A DNA stretch of 64,000 bases, from assembly GCA_964016885.1 (NCBI GenBank), contig OZ024743.1, forward strand, positions 217,620,001 to 217,684,000. The letters are read 5' to 3'. The translations under genes and the position numbers were made by a program. Under the pieces are notes generated by a model, which saw only the letters and a list, made by a program, of their open reading frames with translations, did no database searches and had not been told where the DNA came from. Positions 1,034-50,887 of this stretch are shown here, in pieces. This stretch comes from Eledone cirrhosa (lineage: Eukaryota). Within the stretch, counting starts at the first letter, position 1. Each line of letters begins with the position of its first letter.

Positions 1034-2159
1034 ACACGACTTCCTTCCATATATCTATCATTTCCCAAATACTTTTCTCAACAGTACAATAAAGAAATAA
1101 TTGTGCTTCTTGATTATATTTCGCTAAGTTTCTTCCACGCTTGTATCCCCTTAACGACAGTTTAATTAACGAATACTGTCTCATTATATAAAATCAATTA
1201 ATCTCCAGTTTTAATTAGCAATTAAAGAATCGAAACTGTCAGGGTTGCTTATGGTAAAAGAGGGCTGTAAATAATTCAAAATAGCATGGAAAAAATGAGT
1301 AAAACTTTAAAGTCTAAACCGAGCAGGAACGAATGTTATTATTGGTGCAGTGGAAGCGAGATTATATATCATTAAAATATTGTTATTGTGGATAACTTTC
1401 ATTGTTTTTATTAGGAGTATGCACTGGTTATACCTCATTGCAACTTTTCCAGAATAATGTCAGAATAAATTCCAGAATAATATTACAGAGAGAGCGGTAG
1501 TATGTATTGCACAATATTGGCTTTTGCATTACTTCAACGATAATGATTACTGATGAAAGTCACAGGCACCGAAAGACGAGCTGTTAGAAAAATGTGCTAC
1601 ATTGAATTATAATAATAATATAAATTACAATTGCATAATATCATTATATATATATAATGTAAAATTACCACTAAGGACTCCACTTATTCATATATAGGAG
1701 CTACGTCTAACGAATTTAAAGTAAGATGTAATACTCACAAACATAGTTTTAAAAATACCGCATTAGCTAATACAACATCTTTGGCTGAAACAATTAATAA
1801 TTATAGAAAAAAGAATATCAATTACAACCTGGCCTGGAGCGTGCTCAAAAGGGCCACCCCTTATCAAAATAACAGATATGAGTGTAGATTATGGTCCCAG
1901 GAACTTTTTGAAATAATGAAATCTAAGTATATCCTATTAAATAAGCGACAAGAATTAATTATATCTTGCAATCATAGCATTAGAAGAGCCTTCAAATATT
2001 ATAAACCTAATTAATATACACCTCATACTTATATTTTACATATTATTATAATTAGTTTTTTTTAATCTAGTTAACCTATAATTAGTACTTTACTACAGAG
2101 AACTCCATAATTTTATTTCCCCCTTAGAGCTCTCTTTTCCTAAAATTAATACCTAAAAG

Positions 2160-2490
2160 TATACCTATAAATTAATTTAATTTCCTGTTCTGAATCTAGA
2201 TTCCTTGTAGTTTATATAAGAGTGGTATTTCTAACTACTATCCTTATCCCAACATTTTACTTTCCTTCGTGTTTAACAACACTCTTTAATAACATCTAAT
2301 TCTTATTTATCACATTCATATGAATTAATATAAATTTATCCCTATAATCATACCTATCAATTAATTTAATTTCTTGTTATAGATCTAGATTCCTTGTGGT
2401 TTAAATAAGATTGGTATTTCTCACTAATACCCTTACCCTAAAATTTTACTTTCCTTCGTTTTTAACATTATTCTTTAATAACATCAAATG
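2160..2490 (+). repeat. Diverged ~190 bp tandem duplication in the PLE 3' UTR
   Basis: TACCTAT..ATTAATTTAATTTC..ATCTAGATTCCTTGT..TTTTACTTTCCTTCGT..CTTTAATAACATC occurs at ~2162 and ~2351. Confidence 0.85.
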
Positions 2491-2724
2491 TTCGTGTACC
2501 CTTCACTGGCTTGACCTCTTTTCATCCCCAAAGTATTCTTTTCATTCAAAGTATTCTTTACATTCAAAACATAAGTCTGCACTCCTCTACCCCTAAATTA
2601 AATTTCTACTGCTACTATTCTATCAACTTGACCTCTAACTACTTTTCTATTGGTCAATTCAAAACCTGTTCCCAAACAGACCTATTATATTAAATCTTTG
2701 TTGGGTTTTTTCAATAAACAAATC

Positions 2725-2860
2725 TCATCATTTCTGAAGACAGCATGTATCTGTGAAGGTATGTATATTTCCTCTGATATTTTGTAATATTTTTACATAG
2801 ATCTATATGATATACATACCAACACACATATACATCCTAGAAACGATCGTAAAATGATGA
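2725..2860 (+). ncRNA. Type I hammerhead ribozyme with ~100 nt stem II
   Basis: Stem I TCATCATTT/AAATGATGA; CTGAAGA at 2734; stem II ATGTAT..GGTATGTATAT/ATATACATACC..ATACAT; GAAA at 2840; palindromic CGATCG; GTA cleavage triplet. Confidence 0.85.
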
Positions 2861-3047
2861 ATTTTTTAATATAATGAAGTTGTTCTTTGTTTTTATTCAT
2901 TGTTTTTATTAATTTATCTTGACTCTGTTTACCTGTGATTTTCATCGAAAAGTTTTGAATGCCTCTTCTCTTTTCATGATATTTGGATTACATTGAGTTC
3001 TTCATACGGATTGGACACTACCGTATATTTTGGTAGATTTATCTATA

Positions 3048-8299: not shown

Positions 8300-9061
8300 A
8301 TAAATAAACCACACCTAAGTTCGTCCGCAATACTACTCCAGAGAAAACCCAACGTACACAACTGTAACTGCACCTATCCTGACAACTGCCCCCTCGGCAA
8401 TAACTGCCTGGAAAAAAATATTATTTATAAGTGTACCATTAAATCCGGAGGCAACGAGTGGTATTACGTGGGATCAACGGCAACATCGTTTAAATCTCGA
8501 TTGTATAGGCATTCTTACTCAATAAAACACCAGAGCCAAAGAAATGTAACAACTTTAGCAGAAAAAGCTTGGACGCTCAGGGATAGCGATCAAAAGTTTA
8601 CCCTAAAATGGGAAAAATTAGCTAAAACCCAAAGCTTTTCCAGGAGCCAAAATTTCTGCAAATTGTGTAATCTTGAGATTTATTACATAATCACACACAA
8701 GAAGAAACTGCTGAATAACAGAATTGAACGAACATTATTCTGCCGTCACAGAACTAAAACCCTTTTTTCCCACTACAAGCCGAACATTACATAAAAGAGG
8801 GACATCCCCCAACTATATAAACCTTAATCTAGTTAGAAAAATATAAAAACAATCTCTTCTCAACATATATTAATAACCTTAAATTACCACACTAATAATG
8901 GAAAGATATGCTGATGAGAATAGGTACAAATATGCGATAATGAATGTGTCTAAAAACGTCCATAAGTATGTATATATATGTGAAAATGTATATAAATAAG
9001 TAAATATATATATATGTTTGATGTGTATAGTTAGATGTAAGTGTATTCATGTATTAAAGTG

Positions 9062-9126
<65 letters not shown>

Positions 9127-9836
9127 ATATGTGTATATGGATGTGTATGTATGTGTATGTGTGTACACATGGACTAGAGTATGTATGTATATATGTGTGT
9201 GTCTATACGTGTGTATATAAAGATAAGTTGAGTATGAAAATGTATACACATGAGTGCGTATGTATGTACATGAATACATGTGTGTATATATATGTGTATG
9301 CATGTGTATATATATGTAAGTATGAATATGTGAATTGTGAGTATATGTATTTTGTAGAGGTGTGCAAATATATTTGTTTGTGAATGCGTGGGTGAAAGGA
9401 TACGTACACTTGAAAGAAAAATTTAAGTCTGAATGTTAATTAAGTGCAAACACAAAACCAACCACGCATATCTTTACTATCTCTAATCCTTCTATAGATT
9501 TAGAAAAATAACCAATAATATATTCTATAAAAAATGTCAAAACAACAGATGGGAATCTAATTACTCACTGCCACCAAGAATTCTCACTGCTATCGAAAAA
9601 CCACTCCTTCAACTATTCTTCTAACAACTTCACCCCTCCCTCCTAATATTCTCTATAAAAACTAAATAGGTCCTCAGTAATATTATTCTGATGAAATGAC
9701 AGTAAATAATAACATTGAAATATTGAATGTCTGCATAACTACAAGTTTGTAGATAGCAGCTGTTTTAGGTTATGTAACTGTTATAGAAACACGTGTCAAT
9801 AAATTCCTTTCAACTAAACTGTATCCATTCAAATCT

Positions 9837-25176: not shown

Positions 25177-25299
25177 TCCAGACGGCCGTTTCGTTATAAG
25201 ATTTCTACAATTTGTGATAAATAATTTCCAGGTTATGCAGAAACTTGTATACAATCCATAGTTTTATACACAAGCGGGTCTTATAAACTCATCAGTGGA
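25177..25299 (-). ncRNA. Type I hammerhead ribozyme with branched ~95 nt stem II
   Basis: TCCA-CTGATGA-GTTTATAAGA...TCTTATAAC-GAAA-CGGCCG-TC-TGGA. Internal hairpins CTTGTGTATA/TGTATACAAG and TTTCTGCA/TGTAGAAA. Confidence 0.9.
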
Positions 25300-42006: not shown

Positions 42007-42080
42007 GGCCGGTTAGCTCAGTTGGTTAGAGCGTTGTGCTAATAACGCGAATGTCGTGGTTTCGAGCCCCATACCGACCA
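42007..42080 (+). tRNA. tRNA-Ile-AAT: tRNA-Ile(AAT), with mismatches in acceptor and T stems
   Basis: GGCCGGTTAGCTCAGTTGGTTAGAGC..CTAATAA..TTCGAGCCCCATACCGACCA. Confidence 0.7.
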
Positions 42081-42351
42081 GATTTAAATCCTTTCTTTTG
42101 CACTTCTTCCTAAAATATGTTTATCTTAAGACGATTCTGTCAATATATCTTTATCTCTATTATTTATTTACACATCCTCTGAAAAAGGGACGCTACCTAA
42201 TATATAGTCCTACATCTACAAACATGTCAAAGGAATTAATACATTACGATATTTTTGTGTATTATCTATTTTAATCATTTCAATAACTTCCTTACATTTC
42301 TTTACTCTGTTTTATTGAGTTGATTGCGAAATTTACAGAGAATTTTTAACT

Positions 42352-42425
42352 GGTTGGTTAGCTCAGTTGGTTAGAGCGTCGTGCTAATAACGCGAATGTC
42401 GTGTGTTCGAGCTCCATACTGGCCA
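42352..42425 (+). pseudogene. tRNA-Ile(AAT), T stem disrupted
   Basis: D and anticodon arms intact; GTGTG/TCCAT mispaired. Confidence 0.75.
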
Positions 42426-42785
42426 TACTTATCCCATTCTTATGTACTGCTTTCTAAAATTTTACTTATTTAATTTATTTTTATATGTAGGAAGCTTTTG
42501 GCTTTCTGTAAATAGCGGTCTTGTATTTGCTAGAAATAGAAATCTAATCAACTCTCATAAACAACACCTCGTCCACTTGAAAAAAAAGGTCACTTTCGAA
42601 AATGTAGTCCAATATCCACACAGTTTGCCAAGGGAGGTATTACCTGGAAATCATTTCATCTTAAGGCGATTGTGTGAATATATGTTTATCTCTATTATCT
42701 GTTTTATTCTCTTCAGAGAATATCATAACCTTTCTTAACTCTGATTTATCGTGTTAATTGTGAATATTACAGGTAGAATTTGGCT

Positions 42786-42858
42786 AGCCGGTTTCCTCAG
42801 TTGGTTAAAACCTCACCTAATAAGGCGAAAGTCGAGAGATTTAACACCATGTTGGCTA
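42786..42858 (+). pseudogene. tRNA-Ile pseudogene
   Basis: Degenerate; CTAATAA loop retained, B-box lost. Confidence 0.7.
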
Positions 42859-43165
42859 GATGTTTGGTTCTTTTACAATGTTATATAAAACTTTATTTTT
42901 TTTATATATTTAGGTCCTCATGGGCTCCTTTATAAATAGTCCGGTAAATAGTTACAACGTGATTGATATAGAAACCTAATTTGCTCTGAAAACACTACAT
43001 TCTCGTCTTTTGATAAATAGACACTTTCGAAAATGTAGACCTACGTTTACATGTCATACCATGGCAGTTAATATCTGGAAATATTTTTTATTTCATAGAA
43101 CATTATTAACTTTCTTTATTCTGTTTTATTATGTTAATTGGGAATTTTGCAGATAACCTATGTAT

Positions 43166-43239
43166 GGTGGGTTAGTTCAGTCAATTAGATCTTCGTGCTA
43201 ATAACGCGAATGTCGGGGGTTCGAGCCCCATACTGGCCA
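43166..43239 (+). pseudogene. tRNA-Ile(AAT) pseudogene
   Basis: D arm and acceptor stem mutated; 3' half near consensus. Confidence 0.75.
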
Positions 43240-43419
43240 TGTTTACTTAAGATTTAAATTAGAGTTTATAACTTTTCTATAAGCCTTTTAATCGGAGTAA
43301 AATTCTTGTTTTTTTTAGTTTTTATTCACATATTTCTATTGAAATGGGATTAGATATATATTATTTTTTAAATAATCAATGTTGGCTGATCCAAGCAAAC
43401 GACCAAGTTTAGTATGATA

Positions 43420-43780
43420 TAGTATACTATACTATACTATAATTTCCTATAATATACTATACTATACAATATTATTCTATACTGTACCATACTATATTAT
43501 ACTATACTGTACTATGCTATAAATATACTATACTATAATATGCTGTACTATACTATACTAAACTAAACTATTCAATACTATACTAAACTATACTATACTA
43601 TACTATACTATACTATACTATACTATACTATACTATACTATACCATACTATACTATACTATACTATACTATACTATACTATACTATACTATACTATACTA
43701 TACTATACTATACTATACTATACTATACTATACTATACTATACTATACTATACTATACTATACTATACTATATGTACTAT
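43420..43780. repeat. (TACTA)n satellite; other tracts at ~44615-44885, 48865-49100, 50220-50330 and 50620-50690
   Basis: Direct pentamer tandem repeats. Confidence 0.95.
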
Positions 43781-43890
43781 GTTATGGATATCTGAAATGT
43801 ATCTTCCTTATTTACTTCACATACCTCCATTTCCCACCTTTAATATATTATTCATTTTAAAATTTTATTTTGCCGTGATTCATTCTATCT

Positions 43891-43964
43891 TGCCGGTTAG
43901 CTCAGTCGGTTAGAGCGTCGTGCTAATAACGCGAATGTCGTGGGTTCAAGCCCCATACTGGCCA
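43891..43964 (+). tRNA. tRNA-Ile-AAT: tRNA-Ile(AAT), near intact (G1 changed to T)
   Basis: Full cloverleaf except the 1-72 pair; T-rich terminator downstream. Confidence 0.75.
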
Positions 43965-44313
43965 CAGTTGTTACAATTTTTTGCACTGATTTGTAAAATT
44001 TTACTTATTAAAAGTATTGTTATATGTAGGAAGGTTACCTTTTTGTAAATAATACTCAAAATGGTCTTCTACCTGCTGGAAATAGAAAACTAATCTGCTC
44101 TCAAAAACAACACATCATCGTTTTAAATAAAAGGACACTTTCGAAAATATGGTCCTATATCCACACAGTTTGCTTTGGGAGGTATTACCTGGAAATCCTT
44201 TACTCTTAAGGCGGTACTGTGAATATATGACTATCTCCATTATCACAGAGTATCATAATCCTACTTAACTCTGATTTATTGTGTTAATTGTGAATATTAG
44301 GGAGGATTTGGCT

Positions 44314-44386
44314 ATCCGGTTACCTCAGGTGGTTAAAGCCTCACCTAATAAGGCGAAAGTCGAGAGATTTAACACCATGTTGACCA
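44314..44386 (+). pseudogene. tRNA-Ile pseudogene (paralog of 42786)
   Basis: Shares the lesions CCTCACCTAATAAGGCGAAAGTCGAGAGATTTAACACC. Confidence 0.7.
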
Positions 44387-44984
44387 GATGTTTGGTTCTT
44401 TTACAATGTTATATAAAACTTTATTCTTTTTTTAATATGTAGGTTCTCATGGGCTCCTTTATAAAGAGTACGGTAAATAGTTACAACGTGATTGATATAG
44501 AAACCTAATTGGCTCTGAAAAACACTACATTCTCGTCTTTTGATAAATGAACACTTTCGAAAATATAGACCTACGTTTGCGTATCATAACATGGCAGTTA
44601 ATATCTGCAGATCTATACTATTCTATACTATACTATACTATACTATACTATACTATACTATATTATACTGTACTATACTATAATATACTCTACTATACTA
44701 TACTATACTATACTATACTATACTATACTATACTATACTATACTATACTATACTATACTATACTATACTATACTATACTATACTATACTATACTATACTA
44801 TACTATACTATACTATACTATACTATACTATACACTATACTATATTATACTGTACTATACTATGCTATACTATACTATACTATACTCTAATTTGTTATAG
44901 CATTTTGATATGGATATCTGAAATGTATCTTCCTCATTTACTTTGTCAAAATAAAACTTTATTTTACCAACTAAGGTATCATCT

Positions 44985-45058
44985 GGCCGGTTAGCTCAGT
45001 CGGTTATAGAATCGTTCTAATAACGCGAGTGTCGTGGGTTCTAACCCCATGCTCACCA
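44985..45058 (+). pseudogene. tRNA-Ile(AAT) pseudogene
   Basis: Several stem mismatches; T run downstream. Confidence 0.75.
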
Positions 45059-45523
45059 CAGTTAATCCTTTTTTTTTTTATTACTTTCTAAAATTTTACC
45101 TATCAAAATTATTTTTATATGTAGGCAGCTTTTGCCTAATTTGTAAACAGTATTCTAAATTGTCTTGTACCTGCTAGAAATAGAACCCTATTTCTATTCT
45201 GATCTCAAAGACGTACACGTTTGAAAATATAGTCCTACCACTACAAATTATGCCATGGGAGTTAATACCTGGAAATCCTATTATCTTAAGACGATTCTGT
45301 CAATATATCTTTATCTTTATTATCTATTTATAATTCGTCTGAAAAAGATTTCACTATCTAATATATAGTGCTACATACACAAGTGTGTCAAGGTAGTTAA
45401 TACATGGAGATCTTTTTGTGTATCTATCACTATTGTCTATTTTAACCATTTCACAGAACTTCATTACCTTTCTTTACTCTGTTTTATTGAGATAATTGTG
45501 AAAATTAGTAGTAAGCCATATAA

Positions 45524-45597
45524 GGCCGGTTAGCTCAGTTGGTTAGAACATCGTGCTAATAACGGGAATGTCATGCGTTCGAGTCCCATACTGGCCA
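45524..45597 (+). pseudogene. tRNA-Ile(AAT), probable pseudogene
   Basis: Acceptor stem intact; single mismatches in D, anticodon and T stems. Confidence 0.75.
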
Positions 45598-45867
45598 TGT
45601 TCACCTACATTCACAAATCATGCCATGCGAGTAATACCTAGAAATCATTTTTTTTTTTATTTTAAAGTGGCTCTATCAATATGTGTATAACTTTGCCTTT
45701 TATCCTTACGGGGTCGATAAAATAAAGTACCAGTAATGGACAGGGGATTAGCTGGCCTTGTGCCAAAAGTAGAAACAATTATTATTTAATTCAATTATTT
45801 CACATCATTAGTTTTCTTTATTCTGCTTCATTGTGTTATTTGTGTACTTTACCGGCAACATTTGTCT

Positions 45868-45940
45868 GGCCGGTTAGTTCAGTCGGTAGACTGTCGTGTT
45901 AATAGCGCTAAAGTCGTGGGTTCGACCCCCATACTGACCA
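45868..45940 (+). pseudogene. tRNA-Ile(AAT) pseudogene
   Basis: Multiple substitutions; B-box retained. Confidence 0.75.
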
Positions 45941-46378
45941 TATTTACTTAAATTAATGCTTAAAATGTTGCCATAAAACTTTTAATCGGAGTAAAATATG
46001 TTTAGTAAAATATATTTTTTGTTTTTGTTTTTTCAAAGGCGGTTATATTCATGTATATTTCGCATTTTCAGAGCCCCGGTCCTAACGCCTAATTTTTGCT
46101 GGACCGGCAATCGCTCTGTATAATCAGCTCCTGATTGTTACTGTAATTCTATAAAATCCAGCTTCTATGATTATTTTAGGCGAACGCCAACCAGCTTGAA
46201 ACAGACTGTCAGATACTCTCGCTTCTTTCGCTGAAAAGAAGTAAGTGACATCGTCACTACTTTAAAACTGATAGCGTATAGTCTTTTAAATGTTTTAAAT
46301 TAAACATGCGGTATGTTGCCAAATATACTATACAAACATTCATGTATACATCACTATTTCAGAGCACCAATCCTAAAA

Positions 46379-46427
<49 letters not shown>

Positions 46428-46429
<2 letters not shown>

Positions 46430-46679
46430 AGAATTATTATGTCTCAACAACAAACTTTTGACCAATCCTTTTGACAATCACCTATGGAATTAGCCCCCTG
46501 AGAAGCTCGGCTATTCAAATACCAGGATAATAATGTTCATTTAGTCCAGAATTAGCCGTCGAAACGGCTTGAGCTCAGCCGTCGGGGTCCTACTCGTTCC
46601 TATTAGCCACTCTACTACCCTAAGTATTGAGTACTTTGGTGTGTTATGGTCCATCTGGTTCCTTACCACATTTCCTTCG

Positions 46680-46682
<3 letters not shown>
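46428..46682 (+). mobile_element. HHR mini-element, family B, inserted in (TA)n within the tRNA array
   Basis: Absent from the paralogous site at ~48785-48802, which has only a short (TA)n. Confidence 0.88.
46493..46588 (+). ncRNA. Type I hammerhead ribozyme, family B (core CTGAGAA, C3-A8 mismatch)
   Basis: GCCCC-CTGAGAA-GCTCGGCTA...TAGCCGTC-GAAA-CGGCT(TGAGCTC)AGCCG-TC-GGGGT. Confidence 0.75.
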
Positions 46683-46721
<39 letters not shown>

Positions 46722-46969
46722 TTTTTCCAATAATCAATGTTGGTTTATCTGAGCAAACGACCAAGTCTAGTTTAAAATACTATACTATACTTTACTATAG
46801 TATACTATACTTTACTTAACTATATTATAATATACTATACTATATATAATATAGCATATTGTTATGGATATCTGAAATGTATCTTCCTCATTTACTACAC
46901 ATATCTCCAATTCCCACCTTTAATATTGTATTATAATAACTCATTAATTTGACAATTGTGGTTGCAACT

Positions 46970-47044
46970 GGCCTGTTAGCTCAGTTGGTTTGAGCGTCGT
47001 GCTGATAACGCGAATGATCTTGGGTTCGAGCCCCATACTGGCCG
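46970..47044 (+). pseudogene. tRNA-Ile copy with GAT anticodon
   Basis: Loop CTGATAA; 1 nt insertion in the variable region; acceptor stem mismatch; discriminator G. Confidence 0.7.
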
Positions 47045-47302
47045 CAGTTGTTTCATTCTTTTGCACTGCTTTCTAAAATTTCATTTTAAATGTAGGAAAT
47101 TTTTGCCACTTTTGAGAATAGCATTCTAAATGGTCTTCTACCGGCTAGAAATAAAAATGTAATCGGCTCCCAGCAACACATCCTCGTTTTTAAATAATAT
47201 AGTCCTATATCAACGGTTTGCCAAGGGAGGTAATACTTGGAAATCCTGATATCTTAAGGTGATTCTGTCAACATATATCTTCCTCAATTATCTATTTTAA
47301 TC

Positions 47303-47486
47303 ATTGGCAGTATCGGTAGAGGGTCGGACGCCATGCTTTGATGCATAGAGTTACGGCCCTTTCCAATATGAGCTTAAATCCCACTGAGGTTAACTTTGCC
47401 TTTCATCCTTACGGGGTCGATAAAATAAAGTACCAGTAATGCACTGGGTAATTTGCTGGCCTTGTGCCAAAAGTAGAAACAATTAT
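47303..47486 (+). mobile_element. SINE family 1 with TSD; 3' fragment also at 45688-45785
   Basis: ATTATCTATTTTAATCATT on both sides; empty site in the paralog at ~49418-49436. Confidence 0.92.
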
Positions 47487-47566
47487 CTATTTTAATCATT
47501 TCACAGAACTTCATTACTTTTCTTTAATCTTTTTTATTGAATTAATTGGGAAATTTACTTATGAAA

Positions 47567-47604
47567 ACCGGTTGGCTCAGTTGGTTAGGTCCCCATAATG
47601 GCTA
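47567..47604 (+). pseudogene. Internally deleted tRNA-Ile remnant (paralog of 49510-49574)
   Basis: CCGGTTGGCTCAGTTGGTTAGG joined directly to TCCCCATAATGGCTA. Confidence 0.65.
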
Positions 47605-48241
47605 TGGCTACGTATATTTTAAATTAGTTTTTAAATCGTCACTAAATACATTTTAAACATAGTATAACATTTTTAGACAGAAATGTTTGCGTTTAAAATT
47701 TTTTAGATTTCTTTTATTCATAACTATGTTTTCAAATATAATTATATATGCATTCATTTTTTTTCAGTAATCAGTGTTGGTTGATCCAAGCAAACGACTG
47801 ATTCTAGTTTAACAAGATGTAAGCACTCCATATATAATTATATCTTGTTAAACTACGTACGTCGTTTGTAATATAAATCTCTGAGTGAAACCTGGTTTGT
47901 TCTCGTTAATATATGTACATATTTATAAACTCTATACCATACACTAGCATAAATATATGTATACTGAATTTTACTATACTGTACTATAATATTCAATATT
48001 ATGTTATAGCATATTCTTATGGATATAATACTATACTATATTATATTATACTATACTACATTATCTTACTATAATATTTAAAAAAAATTAATATACTATA
48101 TTATACTATACTATATTATATAATAGCATATTGTTATGGCTATATGAAATGCAACTTCCTTATTCACTTCACATATCTTCATTTCCCACCTGCACTATTT
48201 TATTTTGTTAATAGTTTATTTTGACAAACTTAATTCTGACT

Positions 48242-48306
48242 GGCCGGTTAACTCAGTTGAATAGAGCATCCTGCTAATAACGCGAAAGTCGCGCCTCAAC
48301 TGGCGA
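48242..48306 (+). pseudogene. tRNA-Ile pseudogene lacking the T arm
   Basis: 5' two-thirds recognisable; B-box deleted. Confidence 0.7.
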
Positions 48307-48567
48307 TGTTTAGTTAAATTAATTCTTTAAATTTTGCCATAAAACTGTTTATCGGAGTAAAATATTTTTAGTAAAATATATTTTCGATTTTTGTTTTTAA
48401 TCATACTTTCCTTTTCAAATGTGGTTATATTCATGTATATTTCGCTATTTCAGAGTACCAATCCTAATGCCTAATATTTGTTGGACTGGCAATCGCTCTG
48501 TATAATCAGCTCCATATTATTACTGAAATACTATGAGAATCCAGCTTCTATAATTTTCGGTGAAGGC

Positions 48568-48631
48568 AAGGGAGTACGTGGCTCTGATGAACGACAACCA
48601 GCGTGAAACAGACTGCCAGATGCTCTCCCTT
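48568..48631 (+). ncRNA. Type I hammerhead ribozyme in the tRNA-array spacer (U16.1 changed to C)
   Basis: AAGGGAGTA..CT-CTGATGA-ACG(ACAACCAG)CGT-GAAA-CAGACTG-CC-AG.TGCTCTCCCTT. The paralog at 46181-46220 keeps GAAACAGACTGTCAGATACTC. Confidence 0.7.
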
Positions 48632-49222
48632 CTTTCGTCGAAAAGAAGTAAGTGACATCTCACTACTTTAAAACTGATAACGTATGGTCTTTTAAATGTT
48701 TTAAATTAAACATACGGTATGTTGCCAAATATACTATACATACATTCATATATACATCGCTATTTCAGAGCACCAATCCTAATATCATATATATATATAT
48801 ACATTTTTTCCAATAACCAATGTTGGTTTATCCGAGCAAACGACCAAGTCTAGTTTAAAATCCTATATTATACTTTACTATAGTATACTATACTTTACTT
48901 TACTATACTATACTATACTATACTATACTATACTATACTATACTATAATAAACTATACTGTACTATACTATACTATACTATACTATACTATACTATACTA
49001 TACTATACTATACTATACTATACTATGCTATACTATACTATAATATACTATAATATACTATACTATACTAGACTATACTATACTATACTATATATACTAT
49101 GTTATAGCATATTGTTATGGATATCTGAAATATATCTTCCTCATTTACTACACATATCTCCAATTCCCACCTTTAATATTATATTATTTTAACTCATTAA
49201 TTTGACAATTGTGGTTCCAAGT

Positions 49223-49296
49223 GGCCTGTTAGCTCAGTTGGTTTGAGCATCGTGTTAATAACGCGAATGTCGTGGGTTCGAGCCCCATACTGGCCG
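49223..49296 (+). tRNA. tRNA-Ile-AAT: tRNA-Ile(AAT) variant (paralog of 46970)
   Basis: Cloverleaf mostly intact; one acceptor mismatch; discriminator G. Confidence 0.6.
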
Positions 49297-49509
49297 CAGT
49301 TGTTTCATTCATAGGAAATTTTCAAAAATATAGTCCTATATCAACGGTTTGCTAAGGGAGGTAATACTTGGAAATCCTGATATCTTAAGGTGATTCTGTC
49401 AACATATATCTTTCTCTATTATCTATTTTAATCATTTCACAGAACTTAATTACTTTTCTTTACTCTGTTTTATTGAATTAATTGGGAAATTTGCTTACGA
49501 AAACTATTT

Positions 49510-49574
49510 GGCCGGTTGACTCAGTTGGTTAGGTCGTCGCACTAATTGCGTGGGTTCGATCCCCATAATGGCTA
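49510..49574 (+). pseudogene. tRNA-Ile pseudogene with deletion
   Basis: 3' anticodon stem and variable region missing. Confidence 0.7.
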
Positions 49575-50088
49575 TGGCTACGTATATTTTAAATTAGTTT
49601 TTAAAACGTCACTAAATACATTTTAAACGTAGTAAAACATTTTTAGACAGAAATGTTTAGGTTTAAAATTTTTTAGATTTCTTTTATTCATAACTATGTT
49701 TTCAAATATAATTATATATGCTTACATTTTTTTTATAATCAGTGTTGGTTAATCCAAGCAAACGACCGATTCTAGTTTAACAAGATGTAAGCACTCCATA
49801 TATAATTAAACTACGTGCGTCGTTTGTAATATAAATCTCAGAGTGAAACCTGGTTTGTTCTCGTTAATATATGTACATATTTATAAACTCTATACCATAC
49901 ACTAGCATAAATATATTTATACTGAATTGTACAATACTACACTATAATATACTATACTATATTATATTATACTATACTATATTATGCTATAGGAACGATC
50001 GACTTTCGTCAAATCGGACCGAGGGAACAATGTTTCCGTTGGTCTTTCCAATTGCTAATACTATCTATCGGTCGCAACTCCAGGTAGA

Positions 50089-50207
50089 AGGAGCAACGTG
50101 AAATAAAGTGTCTTGCTCAAGGACATAGCGCATCGCCTGGTCCAGGAATCGAACTCACAACCTTACGATTGCGAATCCAATTCTCTAACCACTCAGCCAC
50201 ACGCCTT
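50089..50207 (-). mobile_element. SINE family 2 head
   Basis: Reverse complement: AGGCGTGTGGCTGAGTGGTTAGAG..GTGAGTTCGATTCC..TTGAGCAAGACACTTTATTTCACGTTGCTCC. Confidence 0.85.
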
Positions 50208-50454
50208 CATATTATGCTATACTATAATATATTCTATACTATCTATACTATACTATGCTATATTATACTATACTATACTATACTATACTATACTATACTA
50301 TACTGTAATATATTATACTATACTATATTATGTTATAGCATATTGTTATGGCTATATGAAATGCAACTTCCTTATTCACTTCACATATCTTCACCCCCCC
50401 CCCCTATACTGTTTATTTTGTTAATAGTTTAATTTGACAAATTTAACTTTAATT

Positions 50455-50527
50455 GGCCGGTTAACACAGTCTGTTAGATCGTCGTGCTAAAAACGCGTTG
50501 TCGTGGGTTCGAGCCCCATACTGGCCA
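50455..50527 (+). pseudogene. tRNA-Ile pseudogene (anticodon mutated to AAA)
   Basis: D arm broken; loop CTAAAAA. Confidence 0.72.
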
Positions 50528-50813
50528 CGTTATGTATATATATATATATATATATATACTATGTTTTCTTCCAATAATCCATGTTGGTTTATCCGAGCAA
50601 ACGACGAAGTTTAATTTAAAATACTATACTTTACTATAGTATACTATACTTTACTATACTATACTATACTATACTATCTATACTATACTATGTTATAGCA
50701 TATTGTTATGGATATATGAAATGCAACTTCCTTATTTACTTCACATATCTCCTTTACCAACCTTTAGTATTTTATTATTTTAAAACTTTATTTTGACAAC
50801 TATGCTTCCAAGT

Positions 50814-50887
50814 GGCCGGTTAGCTCAGTCGGTTAGAGCTTCGTGCTAATAACGCGAATGTCGTGGGTTCGAGCCCCATACCGGCCA
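50814..50887 (+). tRNA. tRNA-Ile-AAT: tRNA-Ile(AAT), intact
   Basis: GGCCGGT/ACCGGCC acceptor, GCTC/GAGC D stem, TCGTG-CTAATAA-CGCGA, GTGGG-TTCGAGC-CCCAT, discriminator A, TTTT shortly downstream. Confidence 0.93.

Follow-up and report, generated by a model that had tools for sequence, protein, structure and literature searches.

Long-armed type I hammerhead motifs in Hydra-type Penelope-like elements of Eledone cirrhosa

The motif at positions 2725-2860 of the window (the whole 64,000-nt stretch of Eledone cirrhosa DNA analysed here) is real and conserved. It is a long-armed form, specific to its lineage, of the hammerhead, a known ribozyme, and is carried by a known clade of retrotransposons, the Hydra-type Penelope-like elements (PLEs). 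Its identity as a hammerhead motif and its fold are secure. The copy in the window is a solitary, truncated insertion that probably has little importance of its own. Searches with short-spacer descriptors overlook tens of thousands of hammerheads in this one animal genome, and the lineage bears on the question of why PLEs retain hammerheads. With arm lengths that run from 58 to 126 nt, a young element that seems intact and a likely RNA start now mapped, models of cut-or-copy choice and decapping become testable.

The focal hammerhead and its host element

The focal motif is a type I hammerhead, open at stem I, with an intact core, and ranked first by stem I among 12 hammerhead candidates across the window. 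All of its features lie on the + strand. The strands of stem I, TCATCATTT (2725-2733) and 2852-2860, form 9/9 pairs by direct reading, as the earlier note had described. The catalytic core was also read directly as CUGAAGA (DNA CTGAAGA, C3-A9; 2734-2740) and GAA (G12, A13, A14; 2840-2842), such that all elements of the consensus (CUGANGA ... GAAA ... NUH) are present. The gap between the core halves, CTGAAGA at 2734 and GAAA at 2840, is 99 nt; this is stem II (2741-2839; computed fold -28.8 kcal/mol), matching the long imperfect hairpin previously proposed. It comprises a core-adjacent C.A mismatch, two long helices, a conserved internal loop (A(G/A/U)U / UAG) and an apical hairpin. Stem III is the palindrome ACGATCGT (2843-2850), predicted to pair between copies. 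The earlier note had recognised the palindrome correctly, but gave it 6 nt rather than the 8 nt obtained when A15.1 and U16.1 are counted in. The predicted cut follows A2851 (H17 of a GUA triplet; 2851..2852), the hammerhead consensus position. With stem III counted as an inter-copy palindrome, the motif has three helices, and these covary.

The canonical G10.1-C11.1 closing pair is absent, being replaced by C.A in the focal copy and by A.A or U.U in sister families, which may slow catalysis. U.U at this position has been reported as tolerated in the available text of PMC3088659, and many Hydra hammerheads in the accessible rows of PMC8557442 File S2 also show core-adjacent mismatches. A 181-nt region around the motif folded better than 198/200 shuffles (z -2.74). 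Folding alone cannot choose the strand, since the opposite strand gave z -3.45; the strand is set by the core. The focal copy has a change of its own at 2751 that breaks one pair of stem II, and nearly all of the family depth in family-wide contigs has the pairing letter at this position.

The motif lies within a 5'-truncated Hydra-type PLE with TA-rich flanks (1650..3045, +; ends approximate, set by colinear copies). This insertion has 93-95% colinear matches to many copies, spanning 1636-2917 or extending to ~3045. The hammerhead sits 720 nt downstream of a 118-aa GIY-YIG endonuclease remnant (1658..2014, +), the C-terminus of the ORF, recognised by its motifs against the part of the PMC8557442 alignment at hand. 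The 3' UTR contains a tandem duplication of ~190 bp (2143..2489, +; 2143-2300 versus 2332-2489, ~85% alike), found in most copies reaching that far. Just upstream of the ribozyme, AATAAA (2713..2718, +) is a predicted poly(A) signal, kept in 8/11 aligned focal-lineage copies; the remaining 3/11 stop, or pass into different DNA, at this position. Subfamilies can be aligned with one another from AATAAA, across the ribozyme, as far as the first 3' end, whereas their UTRs upstream of this block cannot. An optional 'tail' (2918..3045, +) separates two preferred 3' ends, which are candidate reverse-transcription start sites comparable to those described in the passages seen of PMC11167929. A 211-nt query against the 3.0-Gb genome gave 2,081 first-look candidates, and the 40 that were scored were all at least 96% alike.

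An intact relative from the same lineage carries an uninterrupted 813-aa ORF (L207:4129-6567(-)), flanked by two hammerheads with 116-nt stems II. It is a single ORF, reverse transcriptase then C-terminal GIY-YIG, with the motifs RWR, DKT, YRDD, CxCx5C and YIG and without CCHH; RWR is found in the focal family and RWK in two sister families. This is the Hydra-clade set of an RWK-type motif, DKT and a CxCx5C linker. There were 116 homologs of the ORF at E<=1e-10, and Pfam matched no family to either the ORF or the endonuclease remnant. Insertion characteristics included a (TA)n target, pseudo-LTR tandems and inverted 5'-truncated partners. Units measured 3,294, 3,564 and 6,450 bp, above the descriptive length of <3 kb for the clade, and two further full tandem units were found in other families. 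Judged by its motifs and a by-eye fit to the available published alignment (PMC8557442), the element is a Hydra-clade PLE. The GIY-YIG remnant upstream of the focal motif and the intact Hydra-type ORF between two such hammerheads bear out the earlier assignment to the PLE hammerheads. In the focal family the ORF lies 720-760 nt upstream and ~310 nt downstream of a motif. ORF starts in these elements fall 170-390 nt past the cut. The youngest subfamily (L207:600-4130 (-)) has a 3.5-kb 3' UTR made largely of microsatellites, in a 6.45-kb unit with an intact ORF.

Other identities were considered and rejected. A retrozyme or SINE was discarded as the focal family has its own ORF; the elements are not the short non-coding tandem monomers of animal non-LTR retrozymes. 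A miRNA-like hairpin was discarded as the Rfam matches fell far below gathering scores. Elsewhere in the window, at 42007-50887, there are ten + strand tRNA matches, several of them degenerate, with an Ile (AAU) anticodon loop in the alignments.

Maintenance, abundance and distribution of the long arm

Conservation was assessed within the focal lineage, using 32 non-redundant rows from 86 clustered copies plus one added, and across 8-9 other families, using 24 rows aligned by sequence only. The core was unchanged in 32/32 focal rows except at N7, which was also the sole core position varying at 5% or more in the family-wide contigs (built from four runs of unrecorded kind). In the focal lineage, 95.8% of stem II cells were paired and 8/43 pairs were changed on both sides, five of them in the basal helix, with a covariation score of 0.129 versus <=0.052 for slid controls. 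Across families, 18/28 pairs were changed on both sides (score 0.49 versus <=0.137 slid), these counts being lowered because some rows are misaligned. Both comparisons favour the drawn structures over slid versions in part because the structures came from member sequences, and cell counts are inflated by relatedness, as cells are not independent events. The family-wide contigs repeat paired change at 2747 and 2833. G.U outnumbered A.C at stem II pairs by 51:9 cells (focal) and 60:20 cells (cross-family), although by columns only 12:7 and 12:11; this excess points to the sense RNA and argues against DNA-level palindrome repair as the sole cause of the paired changes. As read from these alignments, stem II is maintained as an RNA fold through paired changes. 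The earlier note had staked its reading on covariation in stem II and on a core kept in the family, and both were found.

The unpaired parts of the arm are also conserved. A two-loop motif (a bulged A beside U.G/U-A, then an A.G loop) occurred in 17/24 cross-family rows, compared to 0/24 antisense rows and 18/960 fold-preserving shuffles, the descriptor having been derived from the very rows scored. The focal lineage has the upper loop only (79/86 copies), and the bulged-A form was absent from it (0/84). Two introns were considered. One inside stem II, suggested by a GT-rich site and a conserved YAG, was rejected: the internal loops that contain the YAG letters covary, and the contigs from runs of unrecorded kind showed no GT..AG joint in stem II. 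One in the downstream 5' UTR was not supported, as the AG/TYGAGC sites (slash at the joint) are copies of a twin hairpin motif common to distant relatives. Of 20 distant Hydra relatives (L211-L283), most were seen by eye to have this twin small hairpin (GCTC ... GAGCAC) in their 5' UTR, between the hammerhead and the start codon. It is eroded in this genome (L070, L071, L087), and the two preferred 3' copy ends lie near or ahead of the motifs.

We scanned the genome for the core halves at set spacers, with the reversed pattern as control. Core halves 55-140 nt apart gave 44,179 matches versus 2,961 for the control, i.e. a long-armed excess of ~41,000 spread over many families. By spacer class, there were 16,723 matches versus 1,066 at 55-84 nt, 19,288 versus 855 at 85-110 nt (the focal design) and 8,168 versus 1,040 at 111-140 nt. 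The last class is mostly one very homogeneous focal-lineage subfamily of 115-116 nt that carries the intact ORF. A sample of 90 matches comprised the first 30 listed per spacer search and is non-independent, since neighbours were included. In this sample, the four free stem III letters formed a perfect palindrome in 72/90 matches (chance 1 in 16), with six different palindrome sequences, which agrees with the dimer-type stem III put forward at the outset, and stem II folding z was below -2 in 66/90. Arm energies ranged from -29 to -47 kcal/mol. The 156 distinct motifs taken from the loci fell into 26 clusters, some of which are chance matches. Eight motif groups had a Hydra-type endonuclease 90-950 nt upstream of the motif; for two branched-arm families, no endonuclease link was found near the motif.

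The window contains further hammerheads. A long-armed one at 9688 (+) has a 91-nt rod and follows a Hydra endonuclease remnant (~8360-8780), and another at 25295 (-) has a 96-nt branched arm and belongs to a family with 1,638 first-look candidates; both come from families other than the focal one. Two inverted pairs, 19254 (+) / 20814 (-) and 15784 (+) / 15688 (-), have stems II of 49-50 nt and 10-11 nt. Just upstream of the focal insertion (1550-1580) there are hammerhead-like core halves with a short spacer and no clear stem III.

Relatives outside this genome have short arms. From 449 related metagenome stretches, 77 loci were retained and scanned with spacers allowed to ~190 nt. This identified 67 hammerheads in 54/77 loci, every one with a stem II of 10-25 nt. 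Such relatives have the same layout as the long-armed elements; in 23/77 loci the same scan found no hammerhead. In a tree of endonuclease fragments, 50/51 rows from this genome formed one clade (support 99), separate from 47 metagenome rows, and one fragment fell outside it on a long branch. The tree was made by a quick method from 142 columns, with possible compositional bias and no published reference rows, and its rows L208 and L189 bear the names of families to which neither is linked. Among the relatives sampled, long arms are limited to this genome. Given the short stems in relatives and the single clade, the long arm looks derived and probably arose once. The CCHH-type PLEs of this genome retain short stems II; this second PLE type, with a CCHH endonuclease and short-stem hammerhead cores, was observed at L073:7772-9100 and L075:2-3540.

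The comparisons with published systems that follow refer to the available passages and supplementary rows of the papers cited. In agreement with the statement that described PLE hammerheads are mostly minimal, stem II in the Hydra rows of PMC8557442 File S2, Hydra-1_oBim among them, measures 3-7 bp and is closed by a loop of 3-10 nt, an octopus hammerhead being as short as the rest, and the longest in that file (spike-moss PLE-X) are ~50 nt. The elements described here resemble those Hydra-clade PLEs in having a type I hammerhead in a pseudo-LTR with an intact core and near-palindromic stem III, in their protein motifs (RWK/RWR, DKT, CxCx5C, no CCHH) and in their (TA)n insertion with tandem and inverted copies. 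They differ in a stem II of 58-126 nt with internal loops, in an even, perfect 8-nt stem III palindrome (9-10 nt with a central loop in most Hydra rows) and in units of 3.3-6.5 kb rather than under 3 kb. They share with minimal dimer PLE hammerheads (Cervera and de la Pena 2014, PMC4209133; review PMC6765202) a short palindromic stem III, predicted dimer-only cleavage and many heterogeneous families per genome with mostly solitary copies. In contrast, those minimal forms have a helix II of 6-8 bp with a conserved G10.1-C11.1 and number thousands per genome, compared to ~41,000 above control here for the long-armed class alone. Type I hammerheads in chrysovirus and fusarivirus 5' UTRs (PMC13725137) likewise precede an ORF. 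They have no evident loop I-II contact, occur in RNA viruses and have a monomer-competent long stem III and a 'long helix II' of 6-8 bp; this is what 'long' means in the literature passages available. We found no report of a long-armed hammerhead in the literature searched, though Lunse et al. 2017, the Terminon paper (2017) and the PMC4209133 supplement might list some; the available portion of the octopus repeat survey contains no mention of ribozymes.

The proposal that a long stem II would escape standard descriptors held in part. A stem of 99 nt exceeds the spacers used in the core-only searches of Craig et al. (7-17 and 35-50 nt in the text available of PMC8557442). Rfam reported no hammerhead at the focal motif at either threshold, but it also reported none in 4/4 loci of short-stem relatives, and hence its failure is not caused by the long stem.

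Copy ends and predicted dimer cutting

Copy ends were mapped at 30 loci picked on the sequence that follows the cut, which gives unbiased ends for one subfamily only. Exactly 125 nt before the cut lay 9/43 of the 5' boundaries, and 17/43 lay within -127..-115. In three of the nine the element abuts a SINE-like end that has letters in common with the site. Over all loci, 18/90 and 7/23 distinct copies ended 7 nt before the core, in sets biased towards complete motifs. Given this pile-up at window position 2727 (+), transcription likely begins there, with the ribozyme forming the first 125 nt of the RNA; such a start would leave 7/9 nt of the 5' strand of stem I. The sequence at this point (TC/A, slash at the start) is one we take to be initiator-like. 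A G preceded 8/26 ends at the putative start (~3 of the 26 misclassed) versus 0/89 continuing copies, only a hint of cap copying. Element 5' ends at this point were repeatedly joined to the end of a common SINE-like repeat (L046, L072, L101, L106, L315, L317), and in L372-L374 the fold-back point of head-to-head copies is precisely the stem III palindrome.

At the other end, copies terminated +67 and +195 from the cut site, so the 3' hammerhead of the template was uncut or religated. Starts at the cut site were rare: of 36 pattern matches, 30 were examined and 13 were true truncations. The control site 8 nt upstream gave five matches, three of them palindrome fold-backs. As cut-site truncations are only ~3x control and A-rich starting letters favour junctions, they are weak evidence for cutting. 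Their rarity makes uncut RNA the likely usual template, which fits the anole PAc element: according to the passages seen of PMC11167929, its hammerhead needs the element's protein in order to cut, and uncut RNA is its dominant template. This Poseidon element also shares the two internal priming sites that define an optional tail. It differs in its short stem and in an ORF that begins inside stem II, compared to an ORF 170-390 nt past the cut and a tail of ~130 nt here.

Computed folds support pairing between copies for the focal sequence. The focal copy alone adopted the active monomer fold at only 1.4%. With two focal copies on one RNA, the double hammerhead was the lowest-energy fold (-80.5 versus 2 x -36.2) and inter-copy stem III had a probability of 0.997. 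The two-copy gain was 6.4 kcal/mol, in comparison to a mean of 0.9 kcal/mol for 37 non-palindromic in-silico controls. The youngest-subfamily copy (L207) behaved differently, with an inter-copy stem III probability of 0.056 and a two-copy gain independent of the palindrome. For most of the remaining families, the active dimer under strict constraint fell far below the best fold, the constraint being crude for bulged stems I. The focal hammerhead is thus predicted, from these folds, to cut solely when two copies pair via the stem III palindrome.

Candidate roles of the long arm

Our working model is a hammerhead in the leader of a capped RNA that cuts only as a dimer, its arm serving as a protein docking handle for the choice between cutting and templating; taken whole, we judge it evenly poised between right and wrong. 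Transcription from the pseudo-LTR would start 7 nt before the core, and read-through beyond the next AATAAA would yield an RNA with one hammerhead at each end. Each hammerhead alone would be off, as the folds predict. The two ends of one RNA, or two RNAs, would pair via the palindrome with swapped stems I to form the double hammerhead. Cutting would take away the capped leader together with the 3' segment holding the priming sites, and would therefore have to be restrained in insertion-bound RNAs, the uncut RNA being the form inserted. The long arm would bind the element's own protein, which would govern whether the RNA is cleaved or stays intact as a template.

Protein binding by the arm is the least supported step of this model. 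The conserved internal loops favour the protein-binding or regulatory platform suggested in the earlier note, whereas length variation by slippage points to loose constraint over much of the arm. A single protein site is less likely because the arm is more varied in length and shape than expected: the focal lineage does not have the bulged-A motif of its sister families (0/84), two families have branched arms, and lengths run from 58 to 126 nt with slippage repeats. The most specific version, an allosteric, protein-gated 5' leader whose 60-125-nt arm is recognised by the element's reverse transcriptase, the protein then deciding between end-to-end pairing with self-decapping and template use, is a tentative proposal that we consider unlikely to be correct in full. 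If it were true, the ~40,000 motifs would be a major undescribed structured-RNA class of the genome.

The arm could instead be tolerated growth, i.e. a peripheral arm that grew through slippage in a lineage rich in AT and microsatellites and is kept paired only to spare the core, with no particular ligand. We regard this as a serious rival, if somewhat unlikely. The spread of lengths, the (TA)/(TG)/(CA) runs, two to four repeats of a 10-nt unit in focal-lineage arms, the occurrence of both rod and branched arms and the 3' UTRs of the same elements, swollen to 3.5 kb with microsatellites, are all consistent with it, as is the confinement of long arms to one clade (50/51 rows, support 99), for which one founder event could suffice. 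However, unpaired and wobble letters are conserved across families despite helix turnover, and the upper loop is common even to the focal lineage (79/86). The short stems II in CCHH-type PLEs of the same genome indicate that the host does not lengthen every hammerhead.

A translation switch appears quite improbable. Here, scanning would be blocked by a hairpin of 100 nt lying only 14 nt from the cap, and cleavage would either free cap-independent translation or decap and silence the RNA. The putative RNA start 7 nt before the core, the arm energies (-29 to -47 kcal/mol) and the ORF start 170-390 nt past the cut would suit such a role, and type I hammerheads in fungal-virus 5' UTRs drive cap-independent translation in the accessible text of PMC13725137. 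This precedent is limited to viruses and plant reporters, however, and relatives with 10-25-nt stems and the same layout do without the arm.

A transcriptional role, in which the arm is a DNA-level internal promoter or masks both the site of poly(A) cleavage and the downstream element to give a read-through template, is very improbable. In its favour, the arm spans +15 to +113 from the putative start, the region of the Penelope internal promoter in the part seen of PMC2377424, and AATAAA precedes the start by 14 nt in the focal lineage and lies <=25 nt past the cut in 32/90 sampled matches. However, the side on which AATAAA lies differs between families, and the double-sided changes and G.U excess are signatures of an RNA fold rather than of a promoter.
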